DNA of 64,000 nucleotides, from positions 1,427,015-1,491,014 of the forward strand of contig JBMNJZ010000001.1 in NCBI GenBank assembly GCA_050951925.1, given 5' to 3'. Position 1 is the stretch's first letter. Every line of letters begins with the position of its first letter. Of this stretch, positions 9,048 to 53,086 are shown in pieces. This DNA is from Saccharofermentanales bacterium. GTDB lineage: Bacteria; Bacillota; Clostridia; Saccharofermentanales; DTU023. Both the position numbers and the translations under genes were made by a program. The notes below the pieces were generated by a model, which saw nothing but the letters and a program-made list of their open reading frames with translations, was not told the origin of the DNA and did not search any database.

Positions 9048-9057
9048 AAACAACGCC

Positions 9058-9087: not shown

Positions 9088-9122
9088 TTTATCCTCCAGC
9101 TCTTTGACCGGCAGTAAACTTC

Positions 9123-9887: not shown

Positions 9888-9960
9888 CGTTTTTTGCTCT
9901 GGTATAAAAACTGTAATGCTAACAATTATACAGTATAATAGATAAATCAGGAGGGCAGCT

Positions 9961-10650
9961 ATGACACCACATATTCTCATTTGCGACGATGATCATGTCG
10001 TGCATGAATCTTTAATTATCTATCTTGACGCTGAGAACTATACTCATATCTCTGCTTTTGATGGTTTGGAAGCCATAAAATTATGGGAAAGCGAGAAGCC
10101 GGATCTGATTATTCTTGATTTGATGATGCCCAAAATGTCAGGTATGGATGTCTGTCGCGAGATTCGAAAAAAGTCTAATGTTCCGGTTATCATGCTGACC
10201 GCCAGAGGTGAAGAAATTGACCGTATTCTGGGTTTGGAGCTGGGTGCCGATGATTATATTGTCAAGCCCTTTAGCCCGCGCGAAGTCATTGCCAGGATTA
10301 AAGCAGTACTGCGCCGATTCCATGATAATGACACCGGATCGGCCTCTTCTATATTGCGCTTTGAAGGTTTGGAAATTAGCCTTGACAATTATCAGGTCAA
10401 AGTCAAGGGAGAGAATGTGGCTTTCACACCTAAGGAAGTTGAGATTCTCCATCTCCTGGCTTCCCACGCGGGACAAGTCATGGACCGCGAGCAGATATTG
10501 TCCAAGGTCTGGGGTTATGATTATTTTGGCGATACCAGAACTGTTGATACTCATATTAAGCGCATCCGCCAGAAAATTGATCAAGCCGATGCCAAATACG
10601 GTCTGATTACAGTGTATGGCGTAGGTTATAAATTTGAAGCTGAAAAATGA
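9961..10650 (+). CDS. OmpR/PhoB-family response regulator
   Basis: Receiver domain (DD...D...K pattern, DLMMP) plus a winged-helix C-terminus (VDTHIKRIRQKI, GYKFE). Confidence 0.9.
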   Translation: MTPHILICDDDHVVHESLIIYLDAENYTHISAFDGLEAIKLWESEKPDLIILDLMMPKMSGMDVCREIRKKSNVPVIMLTARGEEIDRILGLELGADDYIVKPFSPREVIARIKAVLRRFHDNDTGSASSILRFEGLEISLDNYQVKVKGENVAFTPKEVEILHLLASHAGQVMDREQILSKVWGYDYFGDTRTVDTHIKRIRQKIDQADAKYGLITVYGVGYKFEAEK

Positions 10651-12665: not shown

Positions 12666-13356
12666 TCGATATATCTCTGCCGCCGGATACTGTAGCAGAC
12701 GTGAGGCGGACAAATTGATTAAGGCCGGTCTTGTAAGGCTCAATGGTAAGCTTGCCAAAATCGGCGATCTGATCGGCGTTAAGGATATTGTCAAGATTGA
12801 TGGCGAAACCATCGTACCACTTGAGCAAGATCTGCTAGTGTATCTGGCCTTCCATAAACCTGTCGGGATTACTACCACTACCGATAGGAGAAGAAAGGAT
12901 AATATCATCGATTATCTCAATTATCCAAAGCGAATCTTTCCGATCGGCAGATTAGACAGAATGTCAGAAGGTCTGATCTTATTGACTAATGACGGGTCAA
13001 TGGTTAACCCTATTTTGCGGGCAGAGAATAAGCATGAAAAGGAATATGAAGTCGTTGTCAATAAAATAATCAATGATGAGGAGCTTTGGCAACTGCAGAA
13101 CGGAGTTCCGGTTCTGGGACAGATCACAAAATTCAGTAAAATCAAACGCTTAGGCAAAAACTCTTTTCGCATTATTCTGACTCAAGGCTTAAACCGTCAG
13201 ATTCGGCGCATGTGCGAATATCTGGGCTTTGAGGTTGTCTCCTTAAAGCGGATCAGAATTATGCATATTAATCTTGGCAATCTGGCGCCGGGGACCTGGC
13301 GTTATTTGACCTATAAAGAATTGGCTGAATTAAAGCGACTGACAGGCAATTTGTAA
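12646..13356 (+). CDS. RsuA/RluF-family pseudouridine synthase with S4 domain
   Basis: S4 motif (INRYISAAGYCSRREADKLI) and catalytic GRLDRMSEGLILLTNDG. Start taken at MSKIRINRY. Confidence 0.85.
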   Translation: MSKIRINRYISAAGYCSRREADKLIKAGLVRLNGKLAKIGDLIGVKDIVKIDGETIVPLEQDLLVYLAFHKPVGITTTTDRRRKDNIIDYLNYPKRIFPIGRLDRMSEGLILLTNDGSMVNPILRAENKHEKEYEVVVNKIINDEELWQLQNGVPVLGQITKFSKIKRLGKNSFRIILTQGLNRQIRRMCEYLGFEVVSLKRIRIMHINLGNLAPGTWRYLTYKELAELKRLTGNL

Positions 13357-13361
13357 TATTG

Positions 13362-13856
13362 CTACACATCTTCTGCCTTGAAAGAAATGCAGATTTCCCC
13401 TAGCTCAGGCTCCAGCTTAACCAACTCTACACCGGCTGACATCAGCATTCGTTTGGAAGCTATGACAACATCCGTTTCGCTGTATTTATCCGATAGATAT
13501 AGTACTTTTGTAATACCGGATTGTATGATAGCTTTGGCGCACTCATTGCAGGGAAATAAAGGCACATAGATGCGGCAACCCTGCAAGTCACGGCCGGAGG
13601 CGTTCAAAATAGCATTTAATTCCGCGTGACAGACATAGAGATATTTTGTCTCCAGGGCGTCTCCACTGCGGCTCCAAGGAAATTCATCATCACTGCAGCC
13701 ATATGGCATGCCATTATAGCCGATACTGACAATTTTATTTTGTGGCGATACAATGCAGGCACCCACCTGTGTGCCCGGATCTTTACTCCGTCTGGCAGCC
13801 AGCAGCGCAACACCGAGAAAATAATCATCCCATGAAATATAATCAGCTCTTTTCAT
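13362..13856 (-). CDS. comEB: dCMP deaminase (ComEB-type)
   Basis: Zinc motifs HAELNAI and PCNECAKAI. Start taken at MKRADY, overlapping the upstream stop. Confidence 0.85.
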   Translation of the reverse strand: MKRADYISWDDYFLGVALLAARRSKDPGTQVGACIVSPQNKIVSIGYNGMPYGCSDDEFPWSRSGDALETKYLYVCHAELNAILNASGRDLQGCRIYVPLFPCNECAKAIIQSGITKVLYLSDKYSETDVVIASKRMLMSAGVELVKLEPELGEICISFKAEDV

Positions 13857-16800
13857 ATTAGGCTCTCTATTTCTATGCGCTGCTTGACCCGGGTTTTCCA
13901 CAAGCCGTGAACAGTACAGAATTCATAGACTTCGGCAGGTTCATTTTTGAGCATAAATTCGATATCGCCTTCATCCTGATCAGGGAAACAAATCTGATAA
14001 CGATTGCCTTGTACCACAGCAACCCAGGTAATTACGCCATCAGCGGCTTGCTCATGATCAGTTCTGGCTTTGACAATGATGCCGCGATCCGTTTTTTCCA
14101 CTAAAGGCGTATGGTCATAAACATCATCACCGGTTGTCTTGGCCTCGAGAAGTTCCATAGGCTCATCACAACATATAAGCTCACCTGCTCCTTCATTCAA
14201 TAGAACAACGAGATTAGCACAGGCATCGCAATAATAGAAACGAATCTTTTTCATATCATTCCCCCTGTCAGAAATATAAGTTATTCCTTCATCCAATATT
14301 TCATCAGTACTGAAAGTTGAATCTTGTGCGGTAATAAAAGCTAAGGACATCTGCTCGCGTTCGGATTTGCGGCGCCGCAAAATATAAATTATTAATTTAA
14401 TCAAAGCTATCATCAACAAAATAGCCAGAGCAATTAGAGTAATCGCGGCACCATCTCTGAAGCCATAGGGCAGGAAGGACATTTCAACAGTATGTTCGCC
14501 CGCTTCCAGCTCCAATGCCATCAGAGAATCATTAACTGTCAGGATAGTCTGAGGCTTACCGCCTACTTCCGCTGTCCAACCGCGGTCATAAGGAATAGTC
14601 AATAAGAGCAAACCGGCTTCGGGCATCGTGATCCTGCCACTAAAATAAGTATCCGAGAAATCTGTCAAGTCAAGCTGCGCCGCTTGCAAACGGTGGAAAC
14701 CGGCGGTAAATGCTTCTTGATCCAATTTTGCAGCATATAATTCAATTTCTCCTGATTTTTCCGCTTTAGCGCTGAGGCTAATCTCAATACTAGCGGTCTG
14801 CCCTGCCTCGAGATAGCCAACTTCCGCATTGCCAATTGCCTTGGCTGAGAAATTGAAGCTTCTGTCTTCGATTGTGATCTTTCCTGAGGAAGTGCGGTGG
14901 CCTCTCATATCGAAGGCCAGATTATAAGTACCCGCCTCAGCCGCTGTTAATAGGAAAGTATAAGTTGGGGTACTGTCATCGGAGTTTTTCTCAAAACTGA
15001 AGATATTATCTGATTCACCATAATAATCAATATTCCCTTGCAGTGCCGGTCCGATTTCAAGCGGCATATCAACGAAAACATCTGAAAACTCAGGATCCAT
15101 GGCGCAGAGCAAGCGATTTTGATTTTCGAGCGGATTTTCACCGGCACTGTCATAATGCAGAACTCCAGAAGATACCTTGTATCCCAAGTTCAAAGCATAG
15201 GGATTTTCCAACGCTTCAACATCATCATTAGACAAAACTAAATACCTATTTGAATCCTGCCAGTAATCCTTGTTGCGCAAGATCAGATAGCGGATGCCGA
15301 ATAAACTATCAAGGACAATATTCGATCCGTCATACTTATAACTGTTAATGCCATTGCTGAATAAACCTAATTCTTTAAAAAAACGAACCGGTTTCTCCGG
15401 AACAGTTGAATCAAAAAGAGTCAGACCCTTTAGGCCATATAGGCAAGGATCATTAGAGGTTTTAGCAGGATAGACCTCAGTACGGAAAAAAGAGGTATCT
15501 TCAGTAAAATCCTCCAACTGTATTGCTGCGGCACGCACCGATTCCGCTACCGGACCGCTGGCATAACCGTCCCGACTGCCAAAATATTCATTTTTATCGA
15601 GATAATAAAGCCCGGTACAAGTGGAAAAAACCGACTCTACAATAATTACGGCAAGTAGCAAAAGAGTCACCGGTCTCCTGCGCTGCTCGGCATCCAACAA
15701 ACGGATAAAAACTACTGTGTACAGCAAAAGAAAAACAATGCTGATTAAAGCGCTGTAACTTGAGGCTTTATTTTCACCCATTTTCTCAACCACGATAATC
15801 AATGCAATCAGGGTAAATGCAAAACAGAAAATAGTCTCCCGTCTTAGCTGTCTAATGCCCGGAAGAGCCTCATATAGAAAGGTCAGGATAACAAAAATAT
15901 AGACAAATGAATTTCTGAAAGGCAGCTGATTGGGATAATGGAAACCATGCCAGATAAAGTTGAGAATATTAGTACTGAAGCTTAAAATCATAAAAGCAAT
16001 AACTGACAGACTAAGAACTCGGTCTCTCAATTTAACCCTTGAGTTCAGAAAAGCAATAGGCAAAAGGAGTAAAACCGGAATTCCCGAATAAAGATTGGGA
16101 AAACCGCTGCGAACCGTAGGCTCAACCAACAAAAGATGTTGGCCGAAATAGTCAAATAAGGTGGCAACTTTCTCAACTGCAGTCGGAAAAGTATCATTCG
16201 CTGCGGAAGTGACCTGCATAGCCAGGTAAGTCGGCCAGAGCATAAAAGCAGAAAGACCTGCGCCCAGTGCGGTAAAAAATACAGTTTTCACTGTGGTCAG
16301 CAACTTTATCAACGGTCTATGTTCCGGCGCGAAACGAAACAAGAACGGAAGGTATAATAATGCAGCCATGAGGCAGACAAACCAGGCCATATAGAAATTG
16401 ACGAATAACAGATAAGCCAAACTCAAAGTATAAAGCCAGAATTTGTTATCCCTGATCAGGTAAACCATTCCCAAAATTACCAACGGCGCCACATATAATG
16501 AATCAAGCCACATGATATTCCAGCTATAAGCAATCACATAGGAAGAAACAGCATACATGGTTGAAAAGCCAACAGCCAGCGGACCATGCTTCCGGAAAGT
16601 TTTTCTAAGGAACATATTAAAAGTAAAGCCTGCCAGAGACAGTTTAATTAATGTCAGCAGTAAAATTCCTTCCGTCAGGAATGCCGCGGGAAAGAGCAAA
16701 AGGATTAAATTTAAGGGGCTGGCCAGATAATATGCGCTCAGAGCATAGAAATTAACTCCCAATCCGCCGGCGAAACTGTAAAATAAACTGTCGCCGCTAA

Positions 16801-40107: not shown

Positions 40108-41715
40108 CTAAACACTGAAATCTGGTGTGTTCTCTCTGCAGTAGGAAACCCAGTTGCCGTTTTCGATTAATTCTTCTCGACCGAGCTGGCGGAACAACTC
40201 CATACGGCTCTGTGGGGCGAGATCGTACCGCAGGGCAGCCGACGCAAAGAGATGTTTCATTTTTTCATGGTCAATGCTCTTTCGAGCCAAGGACTGCTTG
40301 CCGTAGTATCCCGAAACAAAAACCGTCACCGCGGAAAGACTTCCCCATAGAATCTTAATCCAAACTCGCAAAGTAAAACCGGAAAGAACAATCACCATGG
40401 CGTTCCGGAAGAAATACTCCAAAACCAAGGCTAACAGCCAGAGTACTATGGTGCAAGTCAACATGGCGCGGGTAGCGAGTTCCTGGGTACGGTGCTTTCC
40501 GGCATCCCTGCGCTCAGCTCTTTCGTGGTAGGCTCTTTGGCCGTCAATCCAGGCCTTTTTTACCACATCGGCCGGCACGGCTTCCTTTTCCGGAGCGCCG
40601 ATTAAAAGCGCATAGACCGCGCTTTTTACCCACGTGGCATCGTGCTTCTGTGTCCAGGTAAAGTCATCGCAAACACATTCCCTGCTGCCAAGCGCATAAA
40701 GATATAGCTGAACCCGCAAGGCCTCCGCCAGAGCTCTATACTGTAGGTATTTATCGTGCTGCCGCCGGCGCGCAATCTGTTGGTAGAAAAGAGCATATAG
40801 GACTATGGCACCGCCATATCCGATTAGACATATATTGAGCTCGGCCTCATCGTAGAGCAGGTAAAACATCACCAGCATTACGCTGAATGCGGCAAGCACG
40901 CCCATAATCTTTAAGTAGTGTTTCTGCCACTTCATCGAGAGCTGATCCGCCGCATCATATACCTTTTGAAGCCTGTTGCTTACAGCATGATGAATATATT
41001 CCGGAGCTAAGAGCGGTTCGACGTCCTGAAAGCTTTCCTTTCGCACATCTCGGTTAAAGCGATCTGTTTGTGCCAACACTTCCTTCAGGCTCCCCGCTTC
41101 ATTTTCCAGCAAGTTCACCGTAACGGGGAATTCCTGAGTTTTCGATACTCTGGGTGTAGCGATGTGGATTACCGCGCCCTCATTAGAGGGGCGGAACATT
41201 TTGCCGTTCTGATAATCGCCTTTCAACATAAAGTCCACAGCCTCTGCCGTTCCGCATCCATGCTCCGAACCAGGCTCTCCGTTCCACAGCGCAAGCAGTA
41301 CATGGCTGTGAGCAGCCACGTAAATACCTGTCTGGCGATAAAGATTGTCTCGTTCTTCTCCTTCCGGCCCGCTATAAGGAACCACGAACACATCCGCGGC
41401 CTTGTTTCGCAGGGCTTGATACTCTTCCGACTCTTCGGCACTAAAGTCCTTGCGGTACTCCTCTTCGGGCATGGGAAGCGGGCAATAGAGCGGAATTTGC
41501 AGAGAAAACGCCACGCGGGCACAGAGTTGATCTGCCCCCGCCGCCAGTGAATTCAGCATCCAAACAGGAGAATTGGGATGCTTCCGTTGAATCTTTTGTA
41601 ATTCTCCTGAAACGGCATTTTCCAGTGCGGGGATATCCTCCTTACGGATATCCCTGTGGCCGGTAACACCCACCACGATGGGTATTGTGTTCTTGTTTGC
41701 CTGTGTGTCGCTCAT
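40108..41715 (-). CDS. SLOG-domain (YpsA/DprA/LOG-like) protein with a C-terminal four-TM module (SLATT/LSDAT/DUF4231-like)
   Basis: N-terminus has IVVGVTGHRD, LAAGADQL, PLYCPLP and GCGTAEAV, which match the Rossmann-like SLOG pattern of YpsA/LOG. The C-terminal half has two pairs of TM helices, each preceded by an amphipathic helix (KWQKHYLKIMGVL.., WIDGQRAYHERAERR..). Start at MSDTQ, 20 nt after the upstream stop. Confidence 0.6.
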   Translation of the reverse strand: MSDTQANKNTIPIVVGVTGHRDIRKEDIPALENAVSGELQKIQRKHPNSPVWMLNSLAAGADQLCARVAFSLQIPLYCPLPMPEEEYRKDFSAEESEEYQALRNKAADVFVVPYSGPEGEERDNLYRQTGIYVAAHSHVLLALWNGEPGSEHGCGTAEAVDFMLKGDYQNGKMFRPSNEGAVIHIATPRVSKTQEFPVTVNLLENEAGSLKEVLAQTDRFNRDVRKESFQDVEPLLAPEYIHHAVSNRLQKVYDAADQLSMKWQKHYLKIMGVLAAFSVMLVMFYLLYDEAELNICLIGYGGAIVLYALFYQQIARRRQHDKYLQYRALAEALRVQLYLYALGSRECVCDDFTWTQKHDATWVKSAVYALLIGAPEKEAVPADVVKKAWIDGQRAYHERAERRDAGKHRTQELATRAMLTCTIVLWLLALVLEYFFRNAMVIVLSGFTLRVWIKILWGSLSAVTVFVSGYYGKQSLARKSIDHEKMKHLFASAALRYDLAPQSRMELFRQLGREELIENGNWVSYCRENTPDFSV

Positions 41716-41735: not shown

Positions 41736-43718
41736 TTACATTCTGTAAACAGTCAAGCCGTCGTACCAACGAATGAGCTCCAACATCTTTTCCATGGGCA
41801 CGGCATCCTTGGTTTTTTCCGCTTCTGGCAATTGTTCAAAGGGAACCATATCGTGATGCATGCGGGTACATTCTCGCATGATATTGTCGTTCTTGCCGTT
41901 CGGCAGCTTTCCGACATGGCCGGTACCGAATTGCCAGCCCATATCACTCTTCTCGTCGCACCAGCGCCGGTGCTCCGCTCCGGCGATAACTTCCATATCC
42001 GCAGGAGTAAAATGAGCAACAGTTTCATAGTCTACGGCACGATCAGTATAAAAGCAGTTGATCTTTTCCAGCACGGCGGCAAATCCCTTGGCCTGCGCGA
42101 TATTAGAAAGCTTATACTCAAGAGAAAGATCCTCTTCAAAAGCCCGCACCATATCTTCGGGTGTTCCGGCGCCGCAGTAGCTAGCGTGGAGAGACAGAGC
42201 GAAACGATAGAAGTTCAGATAATTGCTGTCGGAGAGATACAGCCCCGTACGTTTTGCTTTCTCTACCGAAGAAACGGCGATAGTACCGCTGTAATCCGGC
42301 TTTTTTACATCGCTTTCAAACTTGGGGATGATATCACGAAGAGCCACTATCTCGTCGATATCATCTAAAAACTTACTGCGATGCTCTCGCACGGCACCGG
42401 ACTTTTTGATATAGCCGCCGCTGAGCATATTCTGATAGTCTTTACTGTCGAGGGTTCTGTCCTTGTAGGCCTTGTCGTAAAAAAAAGTCCACGTTACGCT
42501 ATCCTCCGACGGGAATACCATGTCGAAATCAAAGGCGTAAATATCGCTGCGGGTATTTTGGCCGTAAGAAGCACGATCCCAGCACTGCAGTTCGTCACAA
42601 AGTATCAAAAGGTAGGCCAGTGGTTGACCGTCCTTAAGACGCAAAGGCTCGTCGGTATAAAGAAAGCTCCGCATGGTGAACTGAAAAAGGCTGTTATGCA
42701 GAATTATGGCGCAAAAACTATCAAGCACGGCTTTCGGGATTTGCTCCAAGCTTTCGATTTCCCGATGACGATTTAGATAAGTCTTCGCCAACACCAGACC
42801 GCTGAAATAAGCATGGTCCATGTAGAGATAGTCCTTCTCCGCCGGGTTCTCGTGAACCGCACGATCTTTAAGAGCTTTTTCCAACTTGTGGCGGCAAAGA
42901 TAGGGCTCGGCCTCCGTGCGGGATAGATAACTTTCGGCCAAGCGTTCAGTAATGGCGTGAGCGTAAAAATCGTTCAAGTCTCCTAAACGAGACATGCTGA
43001 ATTCGTCCATGCGCTTATACGACACATAGGGAGCGAAACCTCTGTCATCGTTGTTATTTTTATCTAACTTACACACATAGGCTTTCATCTGCTGATGAGC
43101 GATTTCAAAGGGATAGCCTATGTCGTGGAAGAGACTGGTCATTCCCCAAAACTCCAGGAAGTGACAGGCCGCTTCCCGCCCTTCCTCAAGGCAGAAGCGA
43201 GCATTATAGGCTTCTCGAAAAAGCCGGTGGTTTTTGTAGATGGAAAGACCTATGCAAAATACATATACACTGTGAGAATAATGGTCACGGTGCCTCATCA
43301 GAAGAGAGCTTGCATTATACTCGTGTTCCGAGAGCATCTCCAACAGAATTCCGGTAGCATCATAACCGGCTCCGAAGGGCTCAAAAATTTCGCAGTAACA
43401 GTAGTAGATGTCAAAAGCGTCTTCCCGTGAACCACTGTCCAAAAAACGACCGATGGCCTGCTCAAAGCTGAGGCGGTCCAAATCGCGTTCCATGTTGAAG
43501 GGAATCCGGCTACGACCGCTGCTACGGCCGTCTAAGTCGTTCAGTTCATGGCGGGAAGGATCAAACTTTAAGTCTTCGCAGCAATCCCGCAGGAAAGACA
43601 GGGAATCCTGCCCGTAACTGCTGCGGCACTGAGGCAGCGGCGGAATAAGCACGGTATCGAAAAGACCGTACTGATCCCGATTTTTCTTTTGCATCTTTTC
43701 CAGGGCACGATAAGCCAT
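41736..43718 (-). CDS. HD-domain phosphohydrolase with a C-terminal RyR (ryanodine-receptor repeat, PF02026-like) domain
   Basis: HD ligand pattern: RHRDHYSHSVYV ... LFHDIGYPFE ... IILHN ... LCDELQCWDR. The C-terminus AEHRRWCDEKSDMGWQFG...HHDMVPFEQLPEAEKTKD matches the RyR-domain consensus (He.W...GW.yG...hp.lvpyeeLpe.ek.kD). Start at MAYRALE (SD AGGAGA), 11 nt after the upstream stop. Confidence 0.65.
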   Translation of the reverse strand: MAYRALEKMQKKNRDQYGLFDTVLIPPLPQCRSSYGQDSLSFLRDCCEDLKFDPSRHELNDLDGRSSGRSRIPFNMERDLDRLSFEQAIGRFLDSGSREDAFDIYYCYCEIFEPFGAGYDATGILLEMLSEHEYNASSLLMRHRDHYSHSVYVFCIGLSIYKNHRLFREAYNARFCLEEGREAACHFLEFWGMTSLFHDIGYPFEIAHQQMKAYVCKLDKNNNDDRGFAPYVSYKRMDEFSMSRLGDLNDFYAHAITERLAESYLSRTEAEPYLCRHKLEKALKDRAVHENPAEKDYLYMDHAYFSGLVLAKTYLNRHREIESLEQIPKAVLDSFCAIILHNSLFQFTMRSFLYTDEPLRLKDGQPLAYLLILCDELQCWDRASYGQNTRSDIYAFDFDMVFPSEDSVTWTFFYDKAYKDRTLDSKDYQNMLSGGYIKKSGAVREHRSKFLDDIDEIVALRDIIPKFESDVKKPDYSGTIAVSSVEKAKRTGLYLSDSNYLNFYRFALSLHASYCGAGTPEDMVRAFEEDLSLEYKLSNIAQAKGFAAVLEKINCFYTDRAVDYETVAHFTPADMEVIAGAEHRRWCDEKSDMGWQFGTGHVGKLPNGKNDNIMRECTRMHHDMVPFEQLPEAEKTKDAVPMEKMLELIRWYDGLTVYRM

Positions 43719-43729: not shown

Positions 43730-44710
43730 TCAGTTCATAACTTCTACTGTAAACGGAGCATTCTCCGGAATCTCCACCGGGAAAATATTTGCCATTATGC
43801 ATACAGTCTCCAGCTCTGCGCAATAAAGCAAAGGTTCCAGAGTTTCCAATTCCCCGCCGGCTATGCTAATTTTGCGAAGTTGAGGGAAATACTGCATGTA
43901 TTTAAGCAGCTCCTCGTTGCAATTATTAAGCCAAATCTCATCATTTGAACAGGTTGTCAAATTCTCGTAGGTCAGAGGTGTCTCCTGGCCCCAATCGTAA
44001 AAGCCAATGGCATCATATAGCATCTCCCGGGTCTTTTCCGACTCAAAGACTATCTCTTCCGTCAGCTTTTGATTGGTCTGCTCAAAGATACCGTGGGTAA
44101 TGACATTGGATCCCATCTGTACCACTTCTTTCGGCTCCGGCTGCTCTGCAAGCGCCACCGGCGCAAGGCCGGGGAGCATATCGTTGAACCAACCGTTATT
44201 CAGGCCGTAGACACCTGTGCCAAGTGCGATTATGAGGCAGACCGCAACGGCGATGATAGCTGTCCAGAAGTTACCCTTCTTTGCGGTACCGACACCTCGT
44301 TCATAGCCGGTGACTCCATCGCCTATGAGGACATCGTCCAGCAAGGCTCGAAGCTCTGCGTATTCCTTAACGGTCTCACATCCGGAAAGCTTGGGATGGA
44401 CTTTATCCCCCAGGGTAAACTGATATACTGGGCGAGTATCCGCTCCGGCGTGCACCACTTCGTTTTCGCAGTTGGGAGAGATTAAGGATTCTTCCGACAC
44501 AAACACCAATACCGCGGAGGCGGCGCGGAGGTGATCTTCTATGTTCTTCGGCCATTCACTGCCCGGGGCTATGCCTTCGTCATACCAGAGCCTATATTTC
44601 TCGGAAAAAAGGGCTTCGATTATGGGCATCACCTTTTCGGAATTCCGGTGGGCATAGCTTACGAAGATATATGGCTCGCGGCCTTCATAAGCGGGAATAC
44701 GTTCACTCAT
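43730..44710 (-). CDS. TIR domain - single TM - extracytoplasmic domain with short LRR-like C-terminus
   Basis: N-terminus matches the TIR_2 pattern: PYIFVSYAHRNSEK...RLWYDEGIAPGSEW...AVLVFVSEESLISPNCENEVVHA. TM is FWTAIIAVAVCLIIALGTGVYGL with Lys on the N-side. The C-terminus has L..L..I.I-type repeats. Start at MSERIP (SD AAAGGAGGG). Confidence 0.7.
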   Translation of the reverse strand: MSERIPAYEGREPYIFVSYAHRNSEKVMPIIEALFSEKYRLWYDEGIAPGSEWPKNIEDHLRAASAVLVFVSEESLISPNCENEVVHAGADTRPVYQFTLGDKVHPKLSGCETVKEYAELRALLDDVLIGDGVTGYERGVGTAKKGNFWTAIIAVAVCLIIALGTGVYGLNNGWFNDMLPGLAPVALAEQPEPKEVVQMGSNVITHGIFEQTNQKLTEEIVFESEKTREMLYDAIGFYDWGQETPLTYENLTTCSNDEIWLNNCNEELLKYMQYFPQLRKISIAGGELETLEPLLYCAELETVCIMANIFPVEIPENAPFTVEVMN

Positions 44711-44726
44711 TTTATTCTGCCCTCCT

Positions 44727-45593
44727 TTAGTGTTCCACAACGACAGTGATTCCGGCATTGCATAGATCGCGGGCGAAGATCACTTGGTCTTGGCTGATTT
44801 TTACGATTTCAATACCCTTAACCTGCGCAAGCGGCCACAGGGCTACATTTGAGGGAATATCCGAAACATTTACCGTGGTAGCGGATACTTCTTTGATGTT
44901 TAGGAGTGTGGTAAAAGTTCCGCCCGAGAGGTCGAGTTCACCCACAGCTTTTCCCGCCATGGCGGCAATGCCCTCGTCGCTGTATTTGGCTATATTCACA
45001 TATTTGCTTCCATTCGTGTTCTGCAGAATGTATGCTGCCGACGTGCGCTCACGTATCATCGAGCCAACATACAGGGCAAAGACCAGTACGACTACTGCCA
45101 CCATAGCAGCTATGATGTAATTTCGCTTGCGGTTGAATTTGCGTTTTTCCATGCCTTCGCCTACCATGGCCTGAGTCAGCACCCCGCTTTTAGTTAAGGC
45201 TTCCGCCGTTTCCTCAGGGCTGCCAAGGGCAATCACCGGAATGTTGGCAAGCTGCATGTCCAGGCCGTAGCCGAGCTGAAATTCTCCAAATTTTACACAG
45301 ACAAGGGGCTTTCGCAGGCTCAACAGGTAGTTGATGGCATTGCGGAAGGCGAGGCTTTCTATGCTCTTTTCCGACAGGAACACCACCGCTCCGCTGCAGT
45401 GAGTTATGGTCTCCGCCAGTGCCGCGGGGCTTTGAGCGAACTTGCCGCCGCAACTATCGCAGCTCAGCCTAAAACCGCGGCTCACAAGAATATCCGCAAC
45501 AGCCGCCGCCGCAGGCTCATCGGCCGGACTACAACCTATATAGGCAAAATCGCCTATACCTGCATAGGGAAGATAGCTAAAGTGCTTTTTCAT
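44727..45593 (-). CDS. Degenerate TIR-like domain - single TM - small extracytoplasmic LRR-like domain
   Basis: Same architecture and spacing as its neighbours (DFAYIGCSPADE...AVVFLSEKSIESLAFRNAINYL). TM is YIIAAMVAVVVLVFALYVGSMI, preceded by KRKFNRKRN. Start at MKKHFS (SD AAGGAGAG). Confidence 0.5.
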   Translation of the reverse strand: MKKHFSYLPYAGIGDFAYIGCSPADEPAAAAVADILVSRGFRLSCDSCGGKFAQSPAALAETITHCSGAVVFLSEKSIESLAFRNAINYLLSLRKPLVCVKFGEFQLGYGLDMQLANIPVIALGSPEETAEALTKSGVLTQAMVGEGMEKRKFNRKRNYIIAAMVAVVVLVFALYVGSMIRERTSAAYILQNTNGSKYVNIAKYSDEGIAAMAGKAVGELDLSGGTFTTLLNIKEVSATTVNVSDIPSNVALWPLAQVKGIEIVKISQDQVIFARDLCNAGITVVVEH

Positions 45594-45604
45594 ATTATCT
45601 CTCC

Positions 45605-47203
45605 TTAGTTGTAGTAGTAGTTGTCGCAATACTCGATGACAAAATGTGCGTCTTGCAACTGTTCATCAGCCAGCTCTCTCATATCTGATGAGATAATCAG
45701 GCGTCGCAGAGACTGAAGTTGCTGAACAGGAGTCAGGTCGCTTAGATTCTGACAGAAATGTATGTCCAGAATATCTATACCCTCAAAGAGCTCCAAGCCA
45801 TCCAAAGAGGATACTGTACTCCAGCCTAAACTTAGTACACCACCGAGATTGATAACAATACCGCTCAATTCCCGCAAAGAGTCTATTTGCAGGCCTTGCC
45901 ATGAAAACTCACGGATGGGTTTTCCTTCTATATATGGCAATACGGCCTGCAATTCATCCTGATCAACAAAAAGCTTATCAAAACTCTCTATATCGCCAAG
46001 CGAAGAATACTCATCTATCTGCGTCTCCCTGATATCAAGATGGATGTATGGAAGAGTATTAAGAGCGGGAAGCTTGCTAACCGGGGCAGCGTTTATAATA
46101 AGGCAGTTCAGCTTATTTGCCGTACTCAGCGCTGAAATGTCCCTCACATTGGTAGCACCTATGTTCAGGTGCTCAAGCTTTGATAGCCTTTCGACACCCG
46201 AAATGTCGGAGACGTAAGTCGCATCCAACATAACGAACACAAGATTTTGGCAGTCCCACAGCGGCGAGGGATCGGTAATATCTGTGGCGGTAAGGAAGAT
46301 GGCTTCCAGATTGCTGAGTGCCCCTATTCCCTCTATAGAAGAAATGGGGTTGGCGCTCAGGTCGAGATAGCTAAGTTTTTTCAAGCAAAACAAGGGTGAA
46401 ATATCGGTAATTTGGTTGCCGCAGATGCAAAGGTATTCCAAATTGGGCATATACGAGAAGATTTCAAGATCTTCGGAAGTCAGGCTGCCCACCGGGACAG
46501 GTCCTTGAACTTCCATATTGTCGTTTACGCTCATACCAAATTGAACAGCACTACGATCGCTGAACTCATACCAGCCGTGAACAAGACTGCCGTATGCCCG
46601 GTCTCCCACAATATAGAGTTCCGTAATGCTCTCTAAATCTTCTCTGGTCAAGCCCCAGCGCTGTGCCGCATTCTCGAGCGCCTTGGCGGGAGCAATAAGC
46701 AGAGGATTCACAACAGCAAAGAACAAAATTACTGCAGCTACAATTGGCGCCGTCACCATTGTGATGGCACGATTGCGCTGATATTTCTTCTGGGCCTTGG
46801 TTACGGCCATATCTCGGAAAATGAAAGCTTCTTTCAGCTTGGAGACAAAAGCCTCGTCCATGTTGTCCGCGAACAGCGCCTGCTGGCTGCCGAGCTGCAT
46901 GGTGCTCCAAGGCGTAGAGGGGATATCTTCCAAATATACACTGAGTATTTTCTGTCCGCGGGCAACAGCCGTATCCACTATGGAGCGAAAGCGTTCGCTT
47001 GCGGAGAACTCCGCCGTAACGAATAGCAGCACGCCGAAGGCCCGTTGCAAGCGCCCTTTTTCGCGGCGGTCGAAGCGGTCCGCGTACCAGAATTGTGCGC
47101 CATCTACGGCCAAAGTTTCCAGCACCGGAAGAATCTGTTCCTCTTGTTCCCGCGGGAATGCAACATAGATATAGGGTCTGTCATTTTTGCAGTAGCGTTC
47201 CAT
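45605..47203 (-). CDS. TIR-like domain - single TM - leucine-rich-repeat (internalin-type, 22-aa period) ectodomain
   Basis: N-terminus: PYIYVAFPREQEE...QFWYADRF...VLLFVTAEFSASERF. TM at aa 146-171, preceded by KAQKKYQRNR. From aa ~252 there are at least 7 consecutive 22-residue repeats of L..L..L.L....I.DISPL type. SD is AGGAGGGAATC. Confidence 0.7.
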   Translation of the reverse strand: MERYCKNDRPYIYVAFPREQEEQILPVLETLAVDGAQFWYADRFDRREKGRLQRAFGVLLFVTAEFSASERFRSIVDTAVARGQKILSVYLEDIPSTPWSTMQLGSQQALFADNMDEAFVSKLKEAFIFRDMAVTKAQKKYQRNRAITMVTAPIVAAVILFFAVVNPLLIAPAKALENAAQRWGLTREDLESITELYIVGDRAYGSLVHGWYEFSDRSAVQFGMSVNDNMEVQGPVPVGSLTSEDLEIFSYMPNLEYLCICGNQITDISPLFCLKKLSYLDLSANPISSIEGIGALSNLEAIFLTATDITDPSPLWDCQNLVFVMLDATYVSDISGVERLSKLEHLNIGATNVRDISALSTANKLNCLIINAAPVSKLPALNTLPYIHLDIRETQIDEYSSLGDIESFDKLFVDQDELQAVLPYIEGKPIREFSWQGLQIDSLRELSGIVINLGGVLSLGWSTVSSLDGLELFEGIDILDIHFCQNLSDLTPVQQLQSLRRLIISSDMRELADEQLQDAHFVIEYCDNYYYN

Positions 47204-47247: not shown

Positions 47248-47282
47248 GTATGATATTATCATACATGCTTTCTGTCTTACAA
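47248..47282 (-). promoter_or_regulatory. Predicted promoter of the island operon with an overlapping perfect palindrome (operator candidate)
   Basis: Minus strand: TTGTAA (47282-47277), 18 nt, TG-n-TAATAT (47258-47253). The 17-nt palindrome GTATGATA-N-TATCATAC (47248-47264) covers the -10. Confidence 0.45.
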
Positions 47283-47550: not shown

Positions 47551-48129
47551 ATGAAAAAGTTAAGCTGTTTGATTGCTCTGTTGCTTGCCTTCTTCATGCT
47601 CCTGCCTTTTACAGGCTGCAAGCAAAATTCGCCTGCAGGATCAGATAACAAGGTATCCGGTTCACCTGCCGCAAACGATTCTTCCATCGTATCCGAACCG
47701 AAGGATAGTTCTGAGCCGGCGCTTCCGGCGGAACCGTCCTTTGTCAAGCACAATTCCATTCAATCCGCACTTCCGTCACCTGGAGATGCCACAGTAACAA
47801 TGACCGGCGACGAGACTATTGATCTGACCGGCATCCCGCTTGCGGGGCGCAAGGAAATCATTTTGGACGGCCACATACTGACATTGACTGGAGCTTACGG
47901 TATTTCAGCGGATGCAGTTTTGGATATCAAGCCGGGCAATGGCACAAACGGAGGTACGCTTAACATGGCGGGTATGACATTTGACTTCGGCTTCCTTGAC
48001 GGAGAGCTTCCTCCCGAAAAGGCACTCGTGGAGATACGCCCCGGCGTAACGATAGTCGAACCGGAATACCCGGAAGGTGTCAGCATAAGGGAGTTCCCGG
48101 GCGTATTGACAGTCATTCAATGTGATTAA
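47551..48129 (+). CDS. Predicted secreted lipoprotein of unknown function
   Basis: Signal peptide with lipobox LPFTGC, Ser/Pro-rich linker, small Gly/Thr-rich C-terminal domain. Divergent from the TIR operon. Confidence 0.6.
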   Translation: MKKLSCLIALLLAFFMLLPFTGCKQNSPAGSDNKVSGSPAANDSSIVSEPKDSSEPALPAEPSFVKHNSIQSALPSPGDATVTMTGDETIDLTGIPLAGRKEIILDGHILTLTGAYGISADAVLDIKPGNGTNGGTLNMAGMTFDFGFLDGELPPEKALVEIRPGVTIVEPEYPEGVSIREFPGVLTVIQCD

Positions 48130-48315: not shown

Positions 48316-50844
48316 TTGAAAGGAAGAATCACCTTGGCTGCTAAAGATACATTGCTTGTCAGCAAAATCTCGGTTCGCCAACTGGTTGCCGGCGCAAGAA
48401 AAACCGGCAGCCTGACCAACCCCAGCTATAGCTCCGCCCGGGCCGCGGATGGTATTAAAGCACATAAGAAATTTGTCAATTTGATGGCGGAACAAATTGA
48501 TAATCCTGATCTGTTCAGCGAATTTTCTTTAGAAACATCTTTTACCACAGAAATTTGCGGTTTGCAGTATCGATTGGAGATCTCAGGTCGTTGCGACCTC
48601 TGGTACCCGGACCGGGATGGTCCATGCCTAATTGAGATCAAAAGTTATCGCGGACAAGAGCGTGCTGAGAATGAGTCCGGGAATTCATTGCACTGGGCTC
48701 AGGCGGAAACTTATGCTTATATGCTCCTGCAAAAAGTTCCTGCCCTGCAAAACTGCAGAAAGATACGTGTCTGTTTAGCTTATGTTGCAGTAGATAGCAA
48801 TGATTATTATTTAATCGAACGAGCATTCGATTCGCCCGCTCTGAAGAAAAAATTCACAGATCTCTGTACCGGCTGGCTGCAAAATACTGTCAGCCTGATA
48901 GATTACCGGAAGACTAGAAATCTTGTGAATGCTGCTGGGGGCTTCCCCTATGACAATCTGCGTGAAGGCCAACGCTTTTTTATGCGGCAGGCAATTGCGG
49001 CTATGCGCGATCGCAGCACTTTATTTGCCCAAGCTGCTACAGGCAGTGGCAAAACAATGGCGGTAGTTTATCCTGCGTTAAAAGCGCAGGCAGCCGGACT
49101 CGGTTCAGTCATCTTCTATCTGACAAATATGTCGTCAACGAAATTGATAGCAGAACAGGCTATTGCCGATTTAAGACAGAATGGCTTTCTGGTACGCAGT
49201 CTCACTTTGACTGCCAAAGAAAAAATTTGTCTGCAACCAGATCTCTACTGCGAAATGAAGATTTGCCCTTATGCTCAGGACTATTATGAAAGATTGCCCT
49301 CCGCTCTCCTGGAGCTGGCATCCATAAAAATGGCGGATCACGATACGATTATAGAGATTGCGCAGAAGCATAGACTGTGTCCTTTTGAGTTGCAGCTGGA
49401 CTTTTCTGAATGGTGCGACATTGTGATCGGCGACTACAATTATCTTTTTGATCCTCGCGTTTATCTGAGCAGATTTTTTGCCGACGACAATAAGGATGCG
49501 CATATTATCCTGATCGATGAAGCCCATAATTTGCCGGCAAGGTCACGACAGATGTACAGCTCCTTCCTGGAGCTTTCCGCTTTACGCCGAGTTGAGCAAC
49601 TGCTGTCGGCACCTGACATCGCCGATCTGGGACCCACTAAACATGCTTTGAACCGCCTTCGTCAAATAATTGGCTGTTTAGATGGGCTTCTGCCTTATTT
49701 GCGCGACCTTGGATTGCAGTTCGCGGATCAAAATTTATTGGGTACGAAAATTAACCAACAGGAACTGCTGCGCACGGAACGGTTCATTGGAGCCAGAAAA
49801 CCTTTGGCGAATTTTATCAGCAATATAGGTTCTTTAGTCTATGCTTTAGGGCAGTTTCTGGATTGCTTCCCGGAATGGGAGTCGCGGCGTACCGTGCTGG
49901 AACTTTGGTTTGAGCTGAATTTTTTCCTGCGCGTAGCTGAATCCTACTATGACAAAAACTATATCACTATGATCCGTCAAACTGCACCAGACGATCTGAC
50001 GATCGGCTTGCTATGTCTGGATGCGGCCAAAAGTCTTACAAACAGATATTATCGACGCTATCCGATAATCTTTTTCTCTGCGACTTTGAGTCCTGCCTCT
50101 TACTACCAGAGGTTGCTATATTCTTATATGACAGAAAATCCACCGGATTTTCTTCAGCTCGCTTCGCCCTTCGCGTCGCGAAACAGATTTGTGCTTACAG
50201 TTGATCATTATTCTGTTCGCTATCAAGATAGAGCAAATACTCTTTTCCCTATTTTGCGTTTAATTTACCAAGCGGTTCAAATCAGACCAGGACATTATCT
50301 CGTATTTTGCCCGTCATTTGTTTATTTGCGGCAAGTAGCTCAGGCACTGAAACAAATTAACATCTCAGAGGAATGGCAAATTATGATCCAGAAACCTAAA
50401 CTCAGCGAGCAAGAAAAAAACAAATGGTTGGATCGCTTCCGCAACACAGGCGGTAAACCACTATTAGCTTTTGCCTGTCTCGGCAGTATTTTTAGCGAAG
50501 GGATTGATCTAATCGGAGAGCAATTAATTGGCGTGTTTGTTATTGGCACCGGTCTGCCCCGTCCCTCACCGGAACGTGAGCTGATGCGCCAATATTACGA
50601 GCAGGAATTCGGCAGTGGTTTTCACTTTGCCTATACTTTCCCCGGTTTTAATCGGGTTATGCAGGCTGCCGGCCGGCTAATCCGCCATGAGGACGACCGG
50701 GGAATAATCATTCTGATTGATGATCGCTATTCACGTGAAGATTATCGGGAAATTATCCCGACTGACTGGTTGGCGCAATCTGTTCATGATGATGAGGAAA
50801 CATTAGCCTTGATCACAGAATTCTGGGACTGTCAATTGACCTAA
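48316..50844 (+). CDS. DinG/XPD-family (Rad3-like) SF2 helicase with an N-terminal PD-(D/E)xK RecB/Cas4-like nuclease domain
   Basis: N-terminus has GRCD...IEIKS plus QAETYAY (the D/ExK and QxxxY motifs). Then Walker A AATGSGKT, four Cys (CLQPDLYCEMKICP...LCPFE, FeS-type), DEAHNL box and C-terminal helicase motifs (QAAGRLIR). Start is uncertain: TTG at 48316 or TTG at 48334. Confidence 0.75.
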   Translation: MKGRITLAAKDTLLVSKISVRQLVAGARKTGSLTNPSYSSARAADGIKAHKKFVNLMAEQIDNPDLFSEFSLETSFTTEICGLQYRLEISGRCDLWYPDRDGPCLIEIKSYRGQERAENESGNSLHWAQAETYAYMLLQKVPALQNCRKIRVCLAYVAVDSNDYYLIERAFDSPALKKKFTDLCTGWLQNTVSLIDYRKTRNLVNAAGGFPYDNLREGQRFFMRQAIAAMRDRSTLFAQAATGSGKTMAVVYPALKAQAAGLGSVIFYLTNMSSTKLIAEQAIADLRQNGFLVRSLTLTAKEKICLQPDLYCEMKICPYAQDYYERLPSALLELASIKMADHDTIIEIAQKHRLCPFELQLDFSEWCDIVIGDYNYLFDPRVYLSRFFADDNKDAHIILIDEAHNLPARSRQMYSSFLELSALRRVEQLLSAPDIADLGPTKHALNRLRQIIGCLDGLLPYLRDLGLQFADQNLLGTKINQQELLRTERFIGARKPLANFISNIGSLVYALGQFLDCFPEWESRRTVLELWFELNFFLRVAESYYDKNYITMIRQTAPDDLTIGLLCLDAAKSLTNRYYRRYPIIFFSATLSPASYYQRLLYSYMTENPPDFLQLASPFASRNRFVLTVDHYSVRYQDRANTLFPILRLIYQAVQIRPGHYLVFCPSFVYLRQVAQALKQINISEEWQIMIQKPKLSEQEKNKWLDRFRNTGGKPLLAFACLGSIFSEGIDLIGEQLIGVFVIGTGLPRPSPERELMRQYYEQEFGSGFHFAYTFPGFNRVMQAAGRLIRHEDDRGIIILIDDRYSREDYREIIPTDWLAQSVHDDEETLALITEFWDCQLT

Positions 50845-50885: not shown

Positions 50886-51656
50886 TTAATCCCTATTGTT
50901 GTCAGAATTTATTATCGTTTCAAAGCTATCCATCAACTTGAGGCGAGTATATTGTTTTTCCAGTTTTTCAGTCAAATAAAGATCGATAAATGACAGCAGT
51001 TCTGACCGAACCCGATTGCTGATTTTAAAATTAAACAAAATCTTGTAATCAGCCTGCACTATATATAGCAATGAAGCTATAGCCGGTTGCGATAGATAGA
51101 TGCAAGCTTCCTGATTAATCTGTTCCTTGCTGCAGACTAAGCCTGAGTCAGGAAAACTAAAACAGCCCCTCTGATCAATCTCGGCATGGCAGCATATGCA
51201 ATCATTAAGCCAAGGGGCATAGCCTAGATCTGAAATCAAACGAAATGCTGCAATTTGAGCAACAATAGCCGGATCATCACTGTGGCACAACTCATGCAGG
51301 GTATATCCCCAGAGCTTATAGGCAGCAGGCTCAGCAACACCTTGTACCAGAGAATCAATAGTCACCTGGCTAAGATGAGCTGCCGCAGTAAGCTTGGCAA
51401 TATCTTGCTGGAGAGGGAGAAATGCTTCAATCAAATCACCGGCGTCAATCGTAATCCGATCTTTATAATAGAATATTTCATATTCTGCCAGTACAAACGG
51501 CATGGTAACAGCTTGCAATCGGCTTTTGCTGCTTGAGGCTCCATAGGCCATCGCGACCGACAAACCTTGCTGCTCGGAAAATAGATGAAGCAGTCTGTCT
51601 TTTTGTCCAAAAGGTACAGATTTTAATACGAACGCCTTAAAACTCTGATGTCTCAT
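50886..51656 (-). CDS. recO: DNA repair protein RecO
   Basis: OB-fold N-terminus typical of RecO, Cys-rich zinc motif (CICCHAEI...C..C), position upstream-adjacent to era. Confidence 0.75.
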   Translation of the reverse strand: MRHQSFKAFVLKSVPFGQKDRLLHLFSEQQGLSVAMAYGASSSKSRLQAVTMPFVLAEYEIFYYKDRITIDAGDLIEAFLPLQQDIAKLTAAAHLSQVTIDSLVQGVAEPAAYKLWGYTLHELCHSDDPAIVAQIAAFRLISDLGYAPWLNDCICCHAEIDQRGCFSFPDSGLVCSKEQINQEACIYLSQPAIASLLYIVQADYKILFNFKISNRVRSELLSFIDLYLTEKLEKQYTRLKLMDSFETIINSDNNRD

Positions 51657-53086
51657 GAAAAATGTTTGCTGTCAAAATCCAGCTCTTGTAAATGATGTGG
51701 TTTATTGCGCCAATCAGCCCTAACCTTGACAAATAAATATAAGTCTACAGGACAATCCGCCATCACTTCCAGCTCCTGACGTGCCTTGATACCGATACTC
51801 TTGATCATGTTGCCGCCTTTACCCAAGATAATTCTCTTATGGCTTTCTTTCTCTGTAAATACTGCGGCGCTGATTTTAATTCTTGTGCGTACGCCTGCAG
51901 AGTCAAATACTTCCTCGTACTCTTCAATCATTACAGCAATCCCATAGGGTAATTCCTCATGAAGACGATAGAGAATAGATTCGCGAATTAATTCCGCAGC
52001 TAACATCCTTTCAGTCTGGTCAGTATAATCACTTTCATCATAATATGGCTGAGAAACAGGTAATTTCTGCTTGATTTCTTGAATTAACAAGGACACGCCG
52101 TTACCATGTTTTGCAGACATTGGAATAATGGACGTGATCCCGTATTCTTGATTATACAGCGCAATTAAGGGCAGCAGATTTTCTTTCTTAGCGGCATCAG
52201 TTTTATTGATAACAACAATAATCGGTTTGCTCATTGCAACTGCTTTATCAAGAATATTCCGCTCTATCTTATCAATAAACGGTTTGAATCCCGCTTCAAT
52301 CATCAGGCAAATCACATCTGACTCTATAAAAGCCTGCTCAGAGGCCTGAAGCATATATTGACCTAATCTGTTAGTTGGTTTATGGACTCCGGGAGTATCC
52401 AAAAAAATGATCTGGGCTTCATTGTCAGTATAGACTCCCCTTATCATTTTCTGTGTAGTTTGAGGCTTAGGTGAAATAATAGAAACCTTTGTGCCGATCA
52501 AACGATTAAGCAGAGTGGATTTACCTACATTAGGCCTACCAATAATTGACACAAACCCTGACCTGAATCTTGGAAAATCTAATGTGCGCATTATCTCTTC
52601 TTGCAGAATAAACATCCTCTCAGCAGCAAAGCAATCTTTGTGATCATAGCCCAACAGATGTAAAGTTGCGTGCACTGTTAAAAAAAGTATTTCTTCCAGT
52701 AGGCTGTGATTATGTTCTGAAGCCTGCAAGGCCGCCTGTTCCGGACATATTACAATATCCCCTAAGTTCAGAAATTTAGAATTATCTATAACTTCTATAT
52801 CCCAAACCTGCACCGGCGCGGCCAGTCTCCCTTCAATCATTTGCAAGGCTGGGAATGACAACACATCTGTCACTTCGTTTATACGGCGAAATTGCTGGTT
52901 TAAACGGCGGATTTCTTCACTGTCAGTTAACAGGATCGAAAGCTTAGGAATCAGACACATTCTTTCAAGCTCTCCGGCAAAATCAAAAGAGCTGATCGTC
53001 ACAGTGACAGCGGACTTAATGTCAGATTCGATTTCGACATCGATTAAATCTGTGAAATTGTTCCCAATCTGAACAATCATGGGCAC
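51653..53086 (-). CDS. era: YbeY endoribonuclease fused to GTPase Era
   Basis: The N-terminal ~165 aa carry the YbeY zinc motif HATLHLLGYDH. The remainder is Era: G1 GRPNVGKST, G3 DTPG, G4 NKTD and the C-terminal KH domain. Confidence 0.85.
   Translation of the reverse strand: MPMIVQIGNNFTDLIDVEIESDIKSAVTVTISSFDFAGELERMCLIPKLSILLTDSEEIRRLNQQFRRINEVTDVLSFPALQMIEGRLAAPVQVWDIEVIDNSKFLNLGDIVICPEQAALQASEHNHSLLEEILFLTVHATLHLLGYDHKDCFAAERMFILQEEIMRTLDFPRFRSGFVSIIGRPNVGKSTLLNRLIGTKVSIISPKPQTTQKMIRGVYTDNEAQIIFLDTPGVHKPTNRLGQYMLQASEQAFIESDVICLMIEAGFKPFIDKIERNILDKAVAMSKPIIVVINKTDAAKKENLLPLIALYNQEYGITSIIPMSAKHGNGVSLLIQEIKQKLPVSQPYYDESDYTDQTERMLAAELIRESILYRLHEELPYGIAVMIEEYEEVFDSAGVRTRIKISAAVFTEKESHKRIILGKGGNMIKSIGIKARQELEVMADCPVDLYLFVKVRADWRNKPHHLQELDFDSKHFS

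Follow-up and report, generated by a model that had tools for sequence, protein, structure and literature searches.

A SLOG protein with four predicted transmembrane helices as candidate receptor and effector of a TIR operon with a ryanodine receptor-like partner

We analyzed a gene at 40108-41715 on the minus strand of a 64,000-nucleotide stretch of DNA from a Saccharofermentanales bacterium (assembly GCA_050951925.1, contig JBMNJZ010000001.1; the whole stretch is called the window, and all nucleotide positions refer to it). Its product, named here SLOG-4TM, carries an N-terminal SLOG domain followed by four predicted transmembrane (TM) helices, and it is encoded at the end of a five-gene operon together with three TIR-type proteins and a partner protein with a C-terminal domain like one of the ryanodine receptor (RyR). 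Sequence comparisons, a structural model, and analogy to known systems suggest that SLOG-4TM probably acts both as receptor and as membrane effector in a Thoeris-type TIR nucleotide-signaling operon. The window locus shows two Thoeris-type traits, namely an adjacent TIR gene with the catalytic glutamate (Glu) and a SLOG fold in the putative effector, and dozens of species carry the five-gene set. What the domains are, how the protein is oriented, how the operon is built, and that its association is conserved were obtained directly by computation. Proteins of this kind have already been predicted and listed; the searchable literature yielded no description of the variant that has an RyR-domain partner together with membrane TIR-LRR paralogs. 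The locus stands out by these companions: TIR-TM-LRR paralogs that look like receptors, of which just one is catalytic, and a host RyR protein fused to a His/Asp-rich domain with no family match.

Gene and protein family

The homologs of the open reading frame (ORF) at 40108-41715 indicate that it is a real gene under selection and no chance ORF. The original prediction had reported this ORF without its strand, and all the motifs that it quoted, IVVGVTGHRD, SLAAGADQLCARVA, IPLYCPLP, and GCGTAEAVDF, are present in the 535-amino-acid (aa) translation, which begins MSDTQANK. An alternative TTG start at 41769 falls within the upstream gene, which favors the ATG at 41715; this codon lies 20 nt past the upstream stop and is preceded by an AAGAG purine stretch. 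A public collection includes a 535-aa protein 100% identical to the query. The search retrieved at least 809 homologs, most of which carry the annotation "hypothetical"; among the matches listed (120), coverage of the query was 88-100% and identity to it 40-84%. For the family alignment we used 60 homologs (39-83% identity to the query), which gave a mean column identity of 50% and 29 invariant columns. The AlphaFold2 model built on this alignment had a mean predicted local distance difference test score (pLDDT) of 93.1 and a predicted TM-score (pTM) of 0.91. When mapped onto this high-confidence model, the conserved positions outline a pocket and what is likely a path of transmission.

SLOG domain

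By its modeled structure, the N-terminal ~190 aa (aa ~10-190; 41146-41686, minus strand) has the Rossmannoid three-layer fold of the SLOG superfamily and is YpsA-like; the domain is predicted to be cytoplasmic. The YpsA/LOG-like SLOG domain proposed in the original prediction is thus borne out by Foldseek against the PDB, in which the best match of the model was B. subtilis YpsA (2nx2; E 1.6e-4, prob 1.00), with a TM-score of 0.65 normalized on YpsA and a sequence identity of 19%. ShosA, DprA from three species (3uqz, 4ljl, 5mll), the LOG-like protein TM1055 (1rcu), and the SLOG domain of ThsA with 3'-cyclic ADP-ribose (3'cADPR; 7uxs) came next, the last at rank 37 with prob 0.84. PDB searches with the single sequence and with the profile gave nothing meaningful, and the query itself did not match the curated SLOG models (YAcAr PF10686, DUF1273, LOG, DprA). 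Among its 60 aligned homologs, 25 weakly matched YAcAr PF10686, a cpYpsA-related SLOG family (best E 1.7e-4), and two matched the DprA model. When the SLOG domain alone was the query, 5,324 representatives at 50% identity were retrieved (E <= 1e-3), and most of the best of these matches were proteins of 500-620 aa with the domain at the N-terminus.

The pocket loops of this domain are the most conserved part of the whole protein in the 60-homolog alignment. They comprise GVTGHR (G16, T18, G19, H20, R21), AxGAD (A58, G60, D62), ALWDG (W144, G146), and GCGTAE (G155, T156, E158). Positions G16, G19, H20, A58, G60, C65, W144, G146, and G155 are invariant, D62 is kept in 59 of the 60 homologs, and R21 is near-invariant. 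AxGAD fits the GxD/E motif of the YpsA clade, termed substrate-binding in a study of YpsA (PMC6459960). YpsA, the best structural match, has in common with the SLOG domain of SLOG-4TM both a Gly-rich loop and the GxD/E motif; unlike SLOG-4TM, it is soluble, consists of one domain, and has been linked to oxidative stress and cell division.

Membrane half

A linker of a β-hairpin and a helix in the model (aa ~190-243) leads to the membrane half (aa ~245-535; 40108-40983, minus strand), delimited by alignment, model, and hydropathy. Family-averaged hydropathy revealed four hydrophobic helices, conserved in the family, at residues ~270-290, 294-316, 416-436, and 450-472; they pair into two hairpins whose outer loops are short and whose cytoplasmic flanks abound in K/R. 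Because of these loops and flanks, all soluble parts of the protein are predicted to be cytoplasmic. A long basic helix, with 5 and 8 K/R residues, respectively, precedes each hairpin. Hydropathy and model thus agree on the two TM hairpins with preceding basic helices that had been proposed from the sequence, with nt 40980 as their onset; this nucleotide corresponds to residue 246, the start of the first basic helix.

The basic helix and TM1-TM2 occupy aa ~244-345, as judged by hidden Markov models (HMMs), the model, and hydropathy. The TM1-TM2 hairpin (~270-316) is flanked by helices, basic before and conserved after, as in SLATT/DUF4231 proteins. NCBIfam SLATT_3 matched the query with E 3.6e-6 (27.1 bits, cut-off 45) and Pfam DUF4231 matched aa 251-344 with E 1e-3 (19.9 bits, cut-off 24.7); among the 60 homologs, 47 matched DUF4231 (best E 1.1e-6) and 24 matched SLATT_3. 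By these profile matches, which for the query itself stay below the curated cut-offs, the first hairpin appears SLATT/DUF4231-like. Of the DUF4231/SLATT/LSDAT likeness suggested originally for the membrane region, the SLATT/DUF4231 part has support for the first hairpin; it does not extend to the second hairpin, and LSDAT is neither among the Pfam hits of the query nor among the 25 commonest of the 84 families matched by the 60 members (E <= 1). A conserved cytoplasmic helical insert (aa ~346-381; alignment, model) separates the first hairpin from the second basic helix with TM3-TM4 (aa ~382-474; model, hydropathy). We dropped the idea that the protein contains two SLATT copies, as hhalign detected no duplication between the hairpins (prob 0.3%).

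The protein ends in conserved helices (aa ~476-531; alignment, model) with the terminal motif REE-IENGNW-SY, in which E514, E518, G520, W522, and S524 are invariant. Conservation is higher in the cytoplasmic juxtamembrane helices than in the membrane helices, and R327, E331, R334, W354, W362, Q393, Y396, R478, D482, and M486 of the juxtamembrane parts are invariant. The membrane half matched no transporter family, a kinship that would have spoken against an effector module. Structural similarity to ABC transporters was insignificant (Foldseek prob ~0.6 or less, root-mean-square deviation (rmsd) >25 A), as was that to TRPM-like channels (TRPM8/TRPM2, prob 0.12-0.13, rmsd >25 A, with LSDAT unmatched).

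Operon and TIR paralogs

Five same-strand genes extend from 47203 down to 40108, overlapping or nearly abutting, and the SLOG-4TM gene is the last of them; from this layout, the cluster is an operon. Two overlapping sigma-70-like promoter matches (47250-47282, minus strand; consensus match only) lie directly upstream of the first gene.

The first three genes, all on the minus strand, encode TIR paralogs, in which the catalytic-Glu position was read from an alignment with published Thoeris TIR domains. The first (45605-47203) is a 532-aa TIR-like-TM-LRR protein with Ile at this position and internalin-type leucine-rich repeats (LRRs) C-terminal to the TM helix. The second (44727-45629) is a TIR-like-TM protein with Ala at the same position and is probably non-catalytic. 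The third (43730-44758), a TIR-TM-LRR-like protein, is the sole keeper of the catalytic Glu among the three; it matches TIR_2 with E 5e-15, its Glu is aligned with the catalytic Glu of BcThsB, and its true start is likely MSERIP at 44710, for a length of 326 aa that agrees with its homologs. All three proteins consist of an N-terminal TIR domain, basic residues, one hydrophobic helix, and C-terminal LRR or LRR-like sequence, and they are predicted to be single-pass proteins with the TIR domain inside and the LRR-type repeats outside. Similarly, 94 of 97 TIR ORFs of related loci have a strongly hydrophobic segment, directly after the TIR domain in all inspected examples. The catalytic Glu is present in all members (34/34) of the 320-450-aa class of TIR paralogs and mostly lost in the other classes.

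The predicted layout with the TIR inside and the LRR outside is the arrangement of Toll-like receptors in reversed order; it occurs at 43730-47203 in the window and also at loci L001, L007, L008, L039, L055, and L058. Each of these loci has one TIR paralog with the catalytic Glu and one to five without it, with six paralogs at L055. We found no description of bacterial TIR-TM-LRR proteins in the searchable literature.

RyR-domain partner

The fourth gene of the operon (41736-43718, minus strand), directly upstream of the SLOG-4TM gene, encodes a partner protein of 660 aa with an all-alpha N-terminal region of ~400 aa, a small beta region, and, at aa ~500-660, a domain that both profiles and model identify as RyR Repeat12 (R12)-like. 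Pfam RyR (PF02026) is matched by 40 of 41 members of the partner family, and the family profile found RyR3 Repeat12 in the PDB at E 1.3e-5. The partner model (pLDDT 85) matched RyR Repeat12 structures, including an ATP complex, with Foldseek prob 1.0 over ~200 columns, and phage "Ryr domain-containing" proteins among viral structures with prob 0.9-0.99.

According to the Lopez Rivera et al. 2026 preprint, phage RyR-domain proteins bind 2'/3'cADPR and then cleave or sequester it; the ligand residues of the phage protein RyDEP comprise a His/Asp dyad together with a Trp for stacking and a His that binds phosphate. The partner retains H583, W586, H621, and D638 at the spacing of these residues, by motif spacing and without a RyDEP alignment. 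The likeness to phage RyDEP and RyR Repeat12 thus lies in the C-terminal match (prob 0.9-1.0) and in the His-Trp-His-Asp spacing. Unlike phage RyDEP, the partner is encoded by the host within a TIR operon and carries an additional ~400-aa domain that matches no known family. The same preprint contains no discussion of host RyR-domain genes in TIR operons, and no paper on the combination of an RyR domain with SLOG was found in the searchable literature.

The N-terminal ~400 aa of the partner had no relative in Pfam/NCBIfam (41 members), in PDB sequences, or by Foldseek in the PDB and viral structures. Invariant residues in the family are H143, D145, H146, H149, H198, D199, H208, H289, D301, H302, H341, D375, and E376, and the motifs of the region are HRDHxxH, FHDIGYPFE, DH, HN, and CDE. 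One might guess from these residues at a metal-dependent hydrolase. A more specific assignment as an HD-phosphohydrolase had only the H...HD...H...D-like motif pattern in its favor and was not supported by Pfam/NCBIfam, by PDB searches with the profile and the single sequence of the N-terminal 400 aa, or by hhalign against one HD_3 protein; HD proteins appeared in the Foldseek results of the partner (PDB, viral) at prob 0.03-0.04 only.

Conservation of the association

A scan of one genome per species yielded at least 506 confirmed stretches encoding a SLOG-4TM relative, mainly in gut and rumen Clostridia, with some in Actinomycetota, Chloroflexota, and Sumerlaeota. The ORFs of 87 loci were searched with effector, partner, and TIR profiles, and counts refer to those 43 whose flanks extend 8 kb or more in both directions. 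The partner was counted within 8 kb and TIR genes within 10 kb of the SLOG-4TM gene; TIR genes were detected by ad hoc HMMs, which undercount, and may lie further off. On this basis the partner was present at 34 of the 43 loci, a TIR gene at 32, both at 27, a TIR gene without the partner at 5, and neither at 4. SLOG-4TM accordingly has the association traits of SLATT, fusion to SLOG and TIR within 10 kb (32/43 loci). Greedy ORF maps gave antisense artefacts (the "c4" cluster, "P+1725" in L071), which we ignored.

The sensor part of the TIR proteins differs among loci and can be LRR, WD40, RHS, or DUF4062-NACHT-WD40. At locus L018, a 1406-aa DUF4062 (TIR-like)-NACHT-WD40 protein (3791-8011, plus strand) lies directly upstream of the partner-effector pair, a STAND-type sensor in place of the membrane TIR-LRR proteins. 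An operon with an 83%-identical effector and an extra LRR paralog (L001/L002/L003) has another neighborhood, between an ABC transporter and an AbiEii/HTH pair, near smpB and tsaD; given this difference in neighborhood, the SLOG-4TM locus appears to be mobile.

A distant full-length homolog of 577 aa is encoded on plasmid pSBC2-4 of Caballeronia sp. SBC2 (7064-14464 of locus L087). It aligns with the SLOG-4TM family by hhalign with prob 99.3 over profile columns 52-473, passes the DUF4231 gathering score (30.9 bits), and is annotated "DUF4231 domain-containing protein". A TIR protein and then a 1190-aa WD40 protein follow downstream, and the RyR partner is absent at this locus. As this locus has both SLOG-4TM and TIR, their association reaches Pseudomonadota.

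Relation to known systems

In papers citing Burroughs et al. 2015, the passages concerned describe SLOG proteins of conflict systems as predicted nucleotide sensors or nucleotide-processing enzymes, and SLATT as a predicted pore-forming effector answering nucleotide or ADPr-derived signals. The Pfam name of SLATT is "SMODS and SLOG-associating 2TM effector domain". Type VII Thoeris combines TIR with a SLATT effector, ThsH, and uses cADPR as its signal (Yirmiya et al., bioRxiv 10.64898/2025.12.03.692087). SLATT effectors, including ThsH, and SLOG-4TM share a two-TM hairpin with flanking helices, coupling to TIR generators, and a predicted nucleotide-triggered breach of the membrane. What sets SLOG-4TM apart from them is the SLOG domain fused at its N-terminus, another TM hairpin with no relation to the first, and a conserved helical module at the C-terminus.

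In type I Thoeris the signal is read by SLOG, and annotation assigns it the same role in types III and IX (Yirmiya et al., 2025). The SLOG domain of ThsA (type I) binds 3'cADPR, and type III Thoeris comprises four TIR genes and a SLOG effector, ThsD. ThsA and ThsD resemble the proposed SLOG-4TM in that SLOG reads a TIR-made cADPR isomer, and type III resembles the window operon in its several TIR paralogs. Unlike ThsA, SLOG-4TM has a membrane module as output and not a SIR2 NADase, and its SLOG domain is nearer to YpsA than to the ThsA type. A comparison made earlier with the TM-type ThsA, relative to which the domain order had seemed reversed, is outdated: this type II effector (ThsC) carries an N-terminal TM region and a C-terminal Macro domain, not SLOG, and Pfam scans of the query and its 60 homologs found no Macro domain in SLOG-4TM.

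The closest published entries are those listed as "SLOG and 4TM" or "4TM SLOG" among putative Thoeris effectors (bioRxiv 10.64898/2025.12.03.692087, Tables S1, S2). By description they are like SLOG-4TM, with SLOG and four TM helices beside a TIR gene. The published systems, from Streptomyces, Nitrospira, and metagenomes, have two genes per operon, unlike the window locus, and carry no mention of an RyR partner or TIR-TM-LRR paralogs. Their five TIRs are weakly similar to the TIRs of the window (best E 1.4e-5). A search with the published Nitrospira "4TM SLOG" TIR returned no identical protein, and a 59%-identical hit, the sole one whose contig exceeded about 1.3 kb, had uninformative surroundings.

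Alternative readings

Several observations weigh against SLOG-4TM as receptor and effector. The SLATT_3 and DUF4231 scores of the query are both under the curated cut-offs, and no known relatives of the second hairpin and the C-terminal helices were detected. Two "SLOG and 4TM" systems tested in E. coli gave no defense (bioRxiv 10.64898/2025.12.03.692087); if the RyR partner is required, its absence could explain the failure of these two-gene systems. The pocket, the genomic setting, and the distribution of TIR genes each provide a further point, and each of them bears on a different alternative.

The SLOG pocket retains the LOG-like GxGTxE motif, with E158 in 51 of 60 homologs, and because this motif is kept, the domain could catalyze a reaction instead of purely sensing. 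In that case SLOG would be an N-glycosidase of the LOG/YpsA type acting in the synthesis, maturation, or breakdown of the messenger, with the four TM helices as a mere anchor near the TIRs, and the effector would lie elsewhere, for example in the His/Asp-rich partner. The likeness of GCGTAE to the LOG motif PGGxGTxxE and the strict or near-strict retention of H20, R21, and D62 fit this idea. Moreover, papers from the Aravind laboratory describe both N-glycosidases and sensors without catalysis among the range of SLOG clades, and for viral YpsA-like SLOGs they propose a role in the degradation of cADPR-type signals. On plasmid pBS72 of B. subtilis, a standalone SLOG adjoins a TIR-caspase pair, where an effector is already present. 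We nevertheless regard the enzyme reading as unlikely, as a passive anchor would not be expected to have a SLATT-type hairpin and such conserved juxtamembrane and C-terminal helices, SLATT is the effector in CBASS and in type VII Thoeris, and ThsA, the closest experimentally characterized SLOG in a TIR system, is a sensor.

The pBS72 locus (L088, 5629-7483) contains TIR and caspase-family genes, which as a pair resemble type IV Thoeris, and after them a gene for a hypothetical protein of 162 aa. This protein is the standalone SLOG, 31% identical to the SLOG domain of SLOG-4TM, and may regulate or process the signal.

The window locus lies amid housekeeping genes (murD, cca, pnp, recO), with no obvious defense island. 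This setting, the concentration of the family in gut and rumen Clostridia, and the N-in TIR proteins with predicted outside LRRs, which would be unusual for intracellular phage sensing, would suit physiological surface sensing and not anti-phage suicide: the LRRs would detect an environmental, host, or kin cue, and SLOG-4TM would be a reversible ligand-gated ion channel by analogy with TRPM. The same operon is found at different genomic positions, once beside AbiEii, and sensor domains are swapped among loci (LRR, WD40, RHS, NACHT-WD40), as is typical of conflict systems; in addition, the structural matches to TRPM are insignificant (prob ~0.12) and LSDAT is unmatched. A purely physiological role therefore seems improbable to us.

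At 7 of the 43 loci the partner is present with no TIR gene detected within 10 kb, and for this reason dependence on TIR may not be universal. Partner and SLOG-4TM could form a core unit independent of TIR, in which the His/Asp domain of the partner makes or processes the ligand, or the RyR domain is the primary sensor, with TIR as an optional input. The partner is indeed the commonest neighbor (34/43), usually directly adjacent, and its family is more conserved than that of the effector, with listed hits 52-90% identical to the query compared with 40-84% for SLOG-4TM. However, TIR genes occur in the absence of the partner at five of the 43 loci and also beside the Caballeronia homolog, where a WD40 gene accompanies TIR, and the ad hoc HMMs undercount TIR genes, which may lie further away. 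We consider a TIR-independent core unit very unlikely.

Proposed mechanism

Returning to SLOG-4TM as receptor and membrane effector, we propose the following pathway, in which ligand identity, gating, oligomerization, and cell outcome are modeled on ThsA, ThsH, and the SLATT effectors of CBASS. A complex of TIR-TM-LRR proteins would sense a cue and activate the catalytic TIR, which would use NAD+ to produce a messenger derived from ADP-ribose. This messenger would be bound in the SLOG pocket of SLOG-4TM, and the resulting change in SLOG would be relayed via the conserved juxtamembrane helices to the 4-TM module. This module would open or oligomerize, making the membrane leaky and leading to growth stop or cell death. 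The RyR partner might bind the same class of messenger and either trim or destroy it, as an off-switch or for maturation, or act as a second effector. SLOG-plus-membrane effectors have been predicted since 2015 and relisted in 2025, and none has yet been demonstrated to be functional; the companions of SLOG-4TM make it testable which TIR-made nucleotide opens a SLATT-type module.

More tentatively, one could imagine that the whole operon follows the logic of Toll-like receptors. Sensors with LRR outside and TIR inside, one catalytic and one to five acting as pseudo-TIR co-receptors, would respond to a surface event through an ADPR-derived messenger with two readers, a SLOG-gated SLATT-type pore and an RyR-His/Asp protein that shapes or ends the signal. 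If this is true, the partner would be the first RyR-domain component of TIR signaling to come from a cell and not from a virus, and would offer a parallel to the proposed cADPR regulation of animal ryanodine receptors. The role of a cellular RyR-domain protein toward cADPR-type signals can be tested through the partner, and the bacterial coupling of extracellular LRR sensing to intracellular TIR signaling through the TIR paralogs.

Neighboring genes

PADLOC gave a single match, to Cas5e, which we judged spurious. The window operon is flanked by a helicase gene and murD. Divergent from the operon lies an ORF of 192 aa (47551-48129, plus strand) with no family match, followed at 48316-50844 (plus strand) by an 842-aa protein with PD-(D/E)XK nuclease, DEAD_2, and Helicase_C_2 domains. 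Further on, at 51653-53086 (minus strand), a single 477-aa ORF combines YbeY endoribonuclease, Era-type GTPase, and KH domains, an apparent YbeY-Era fusion.

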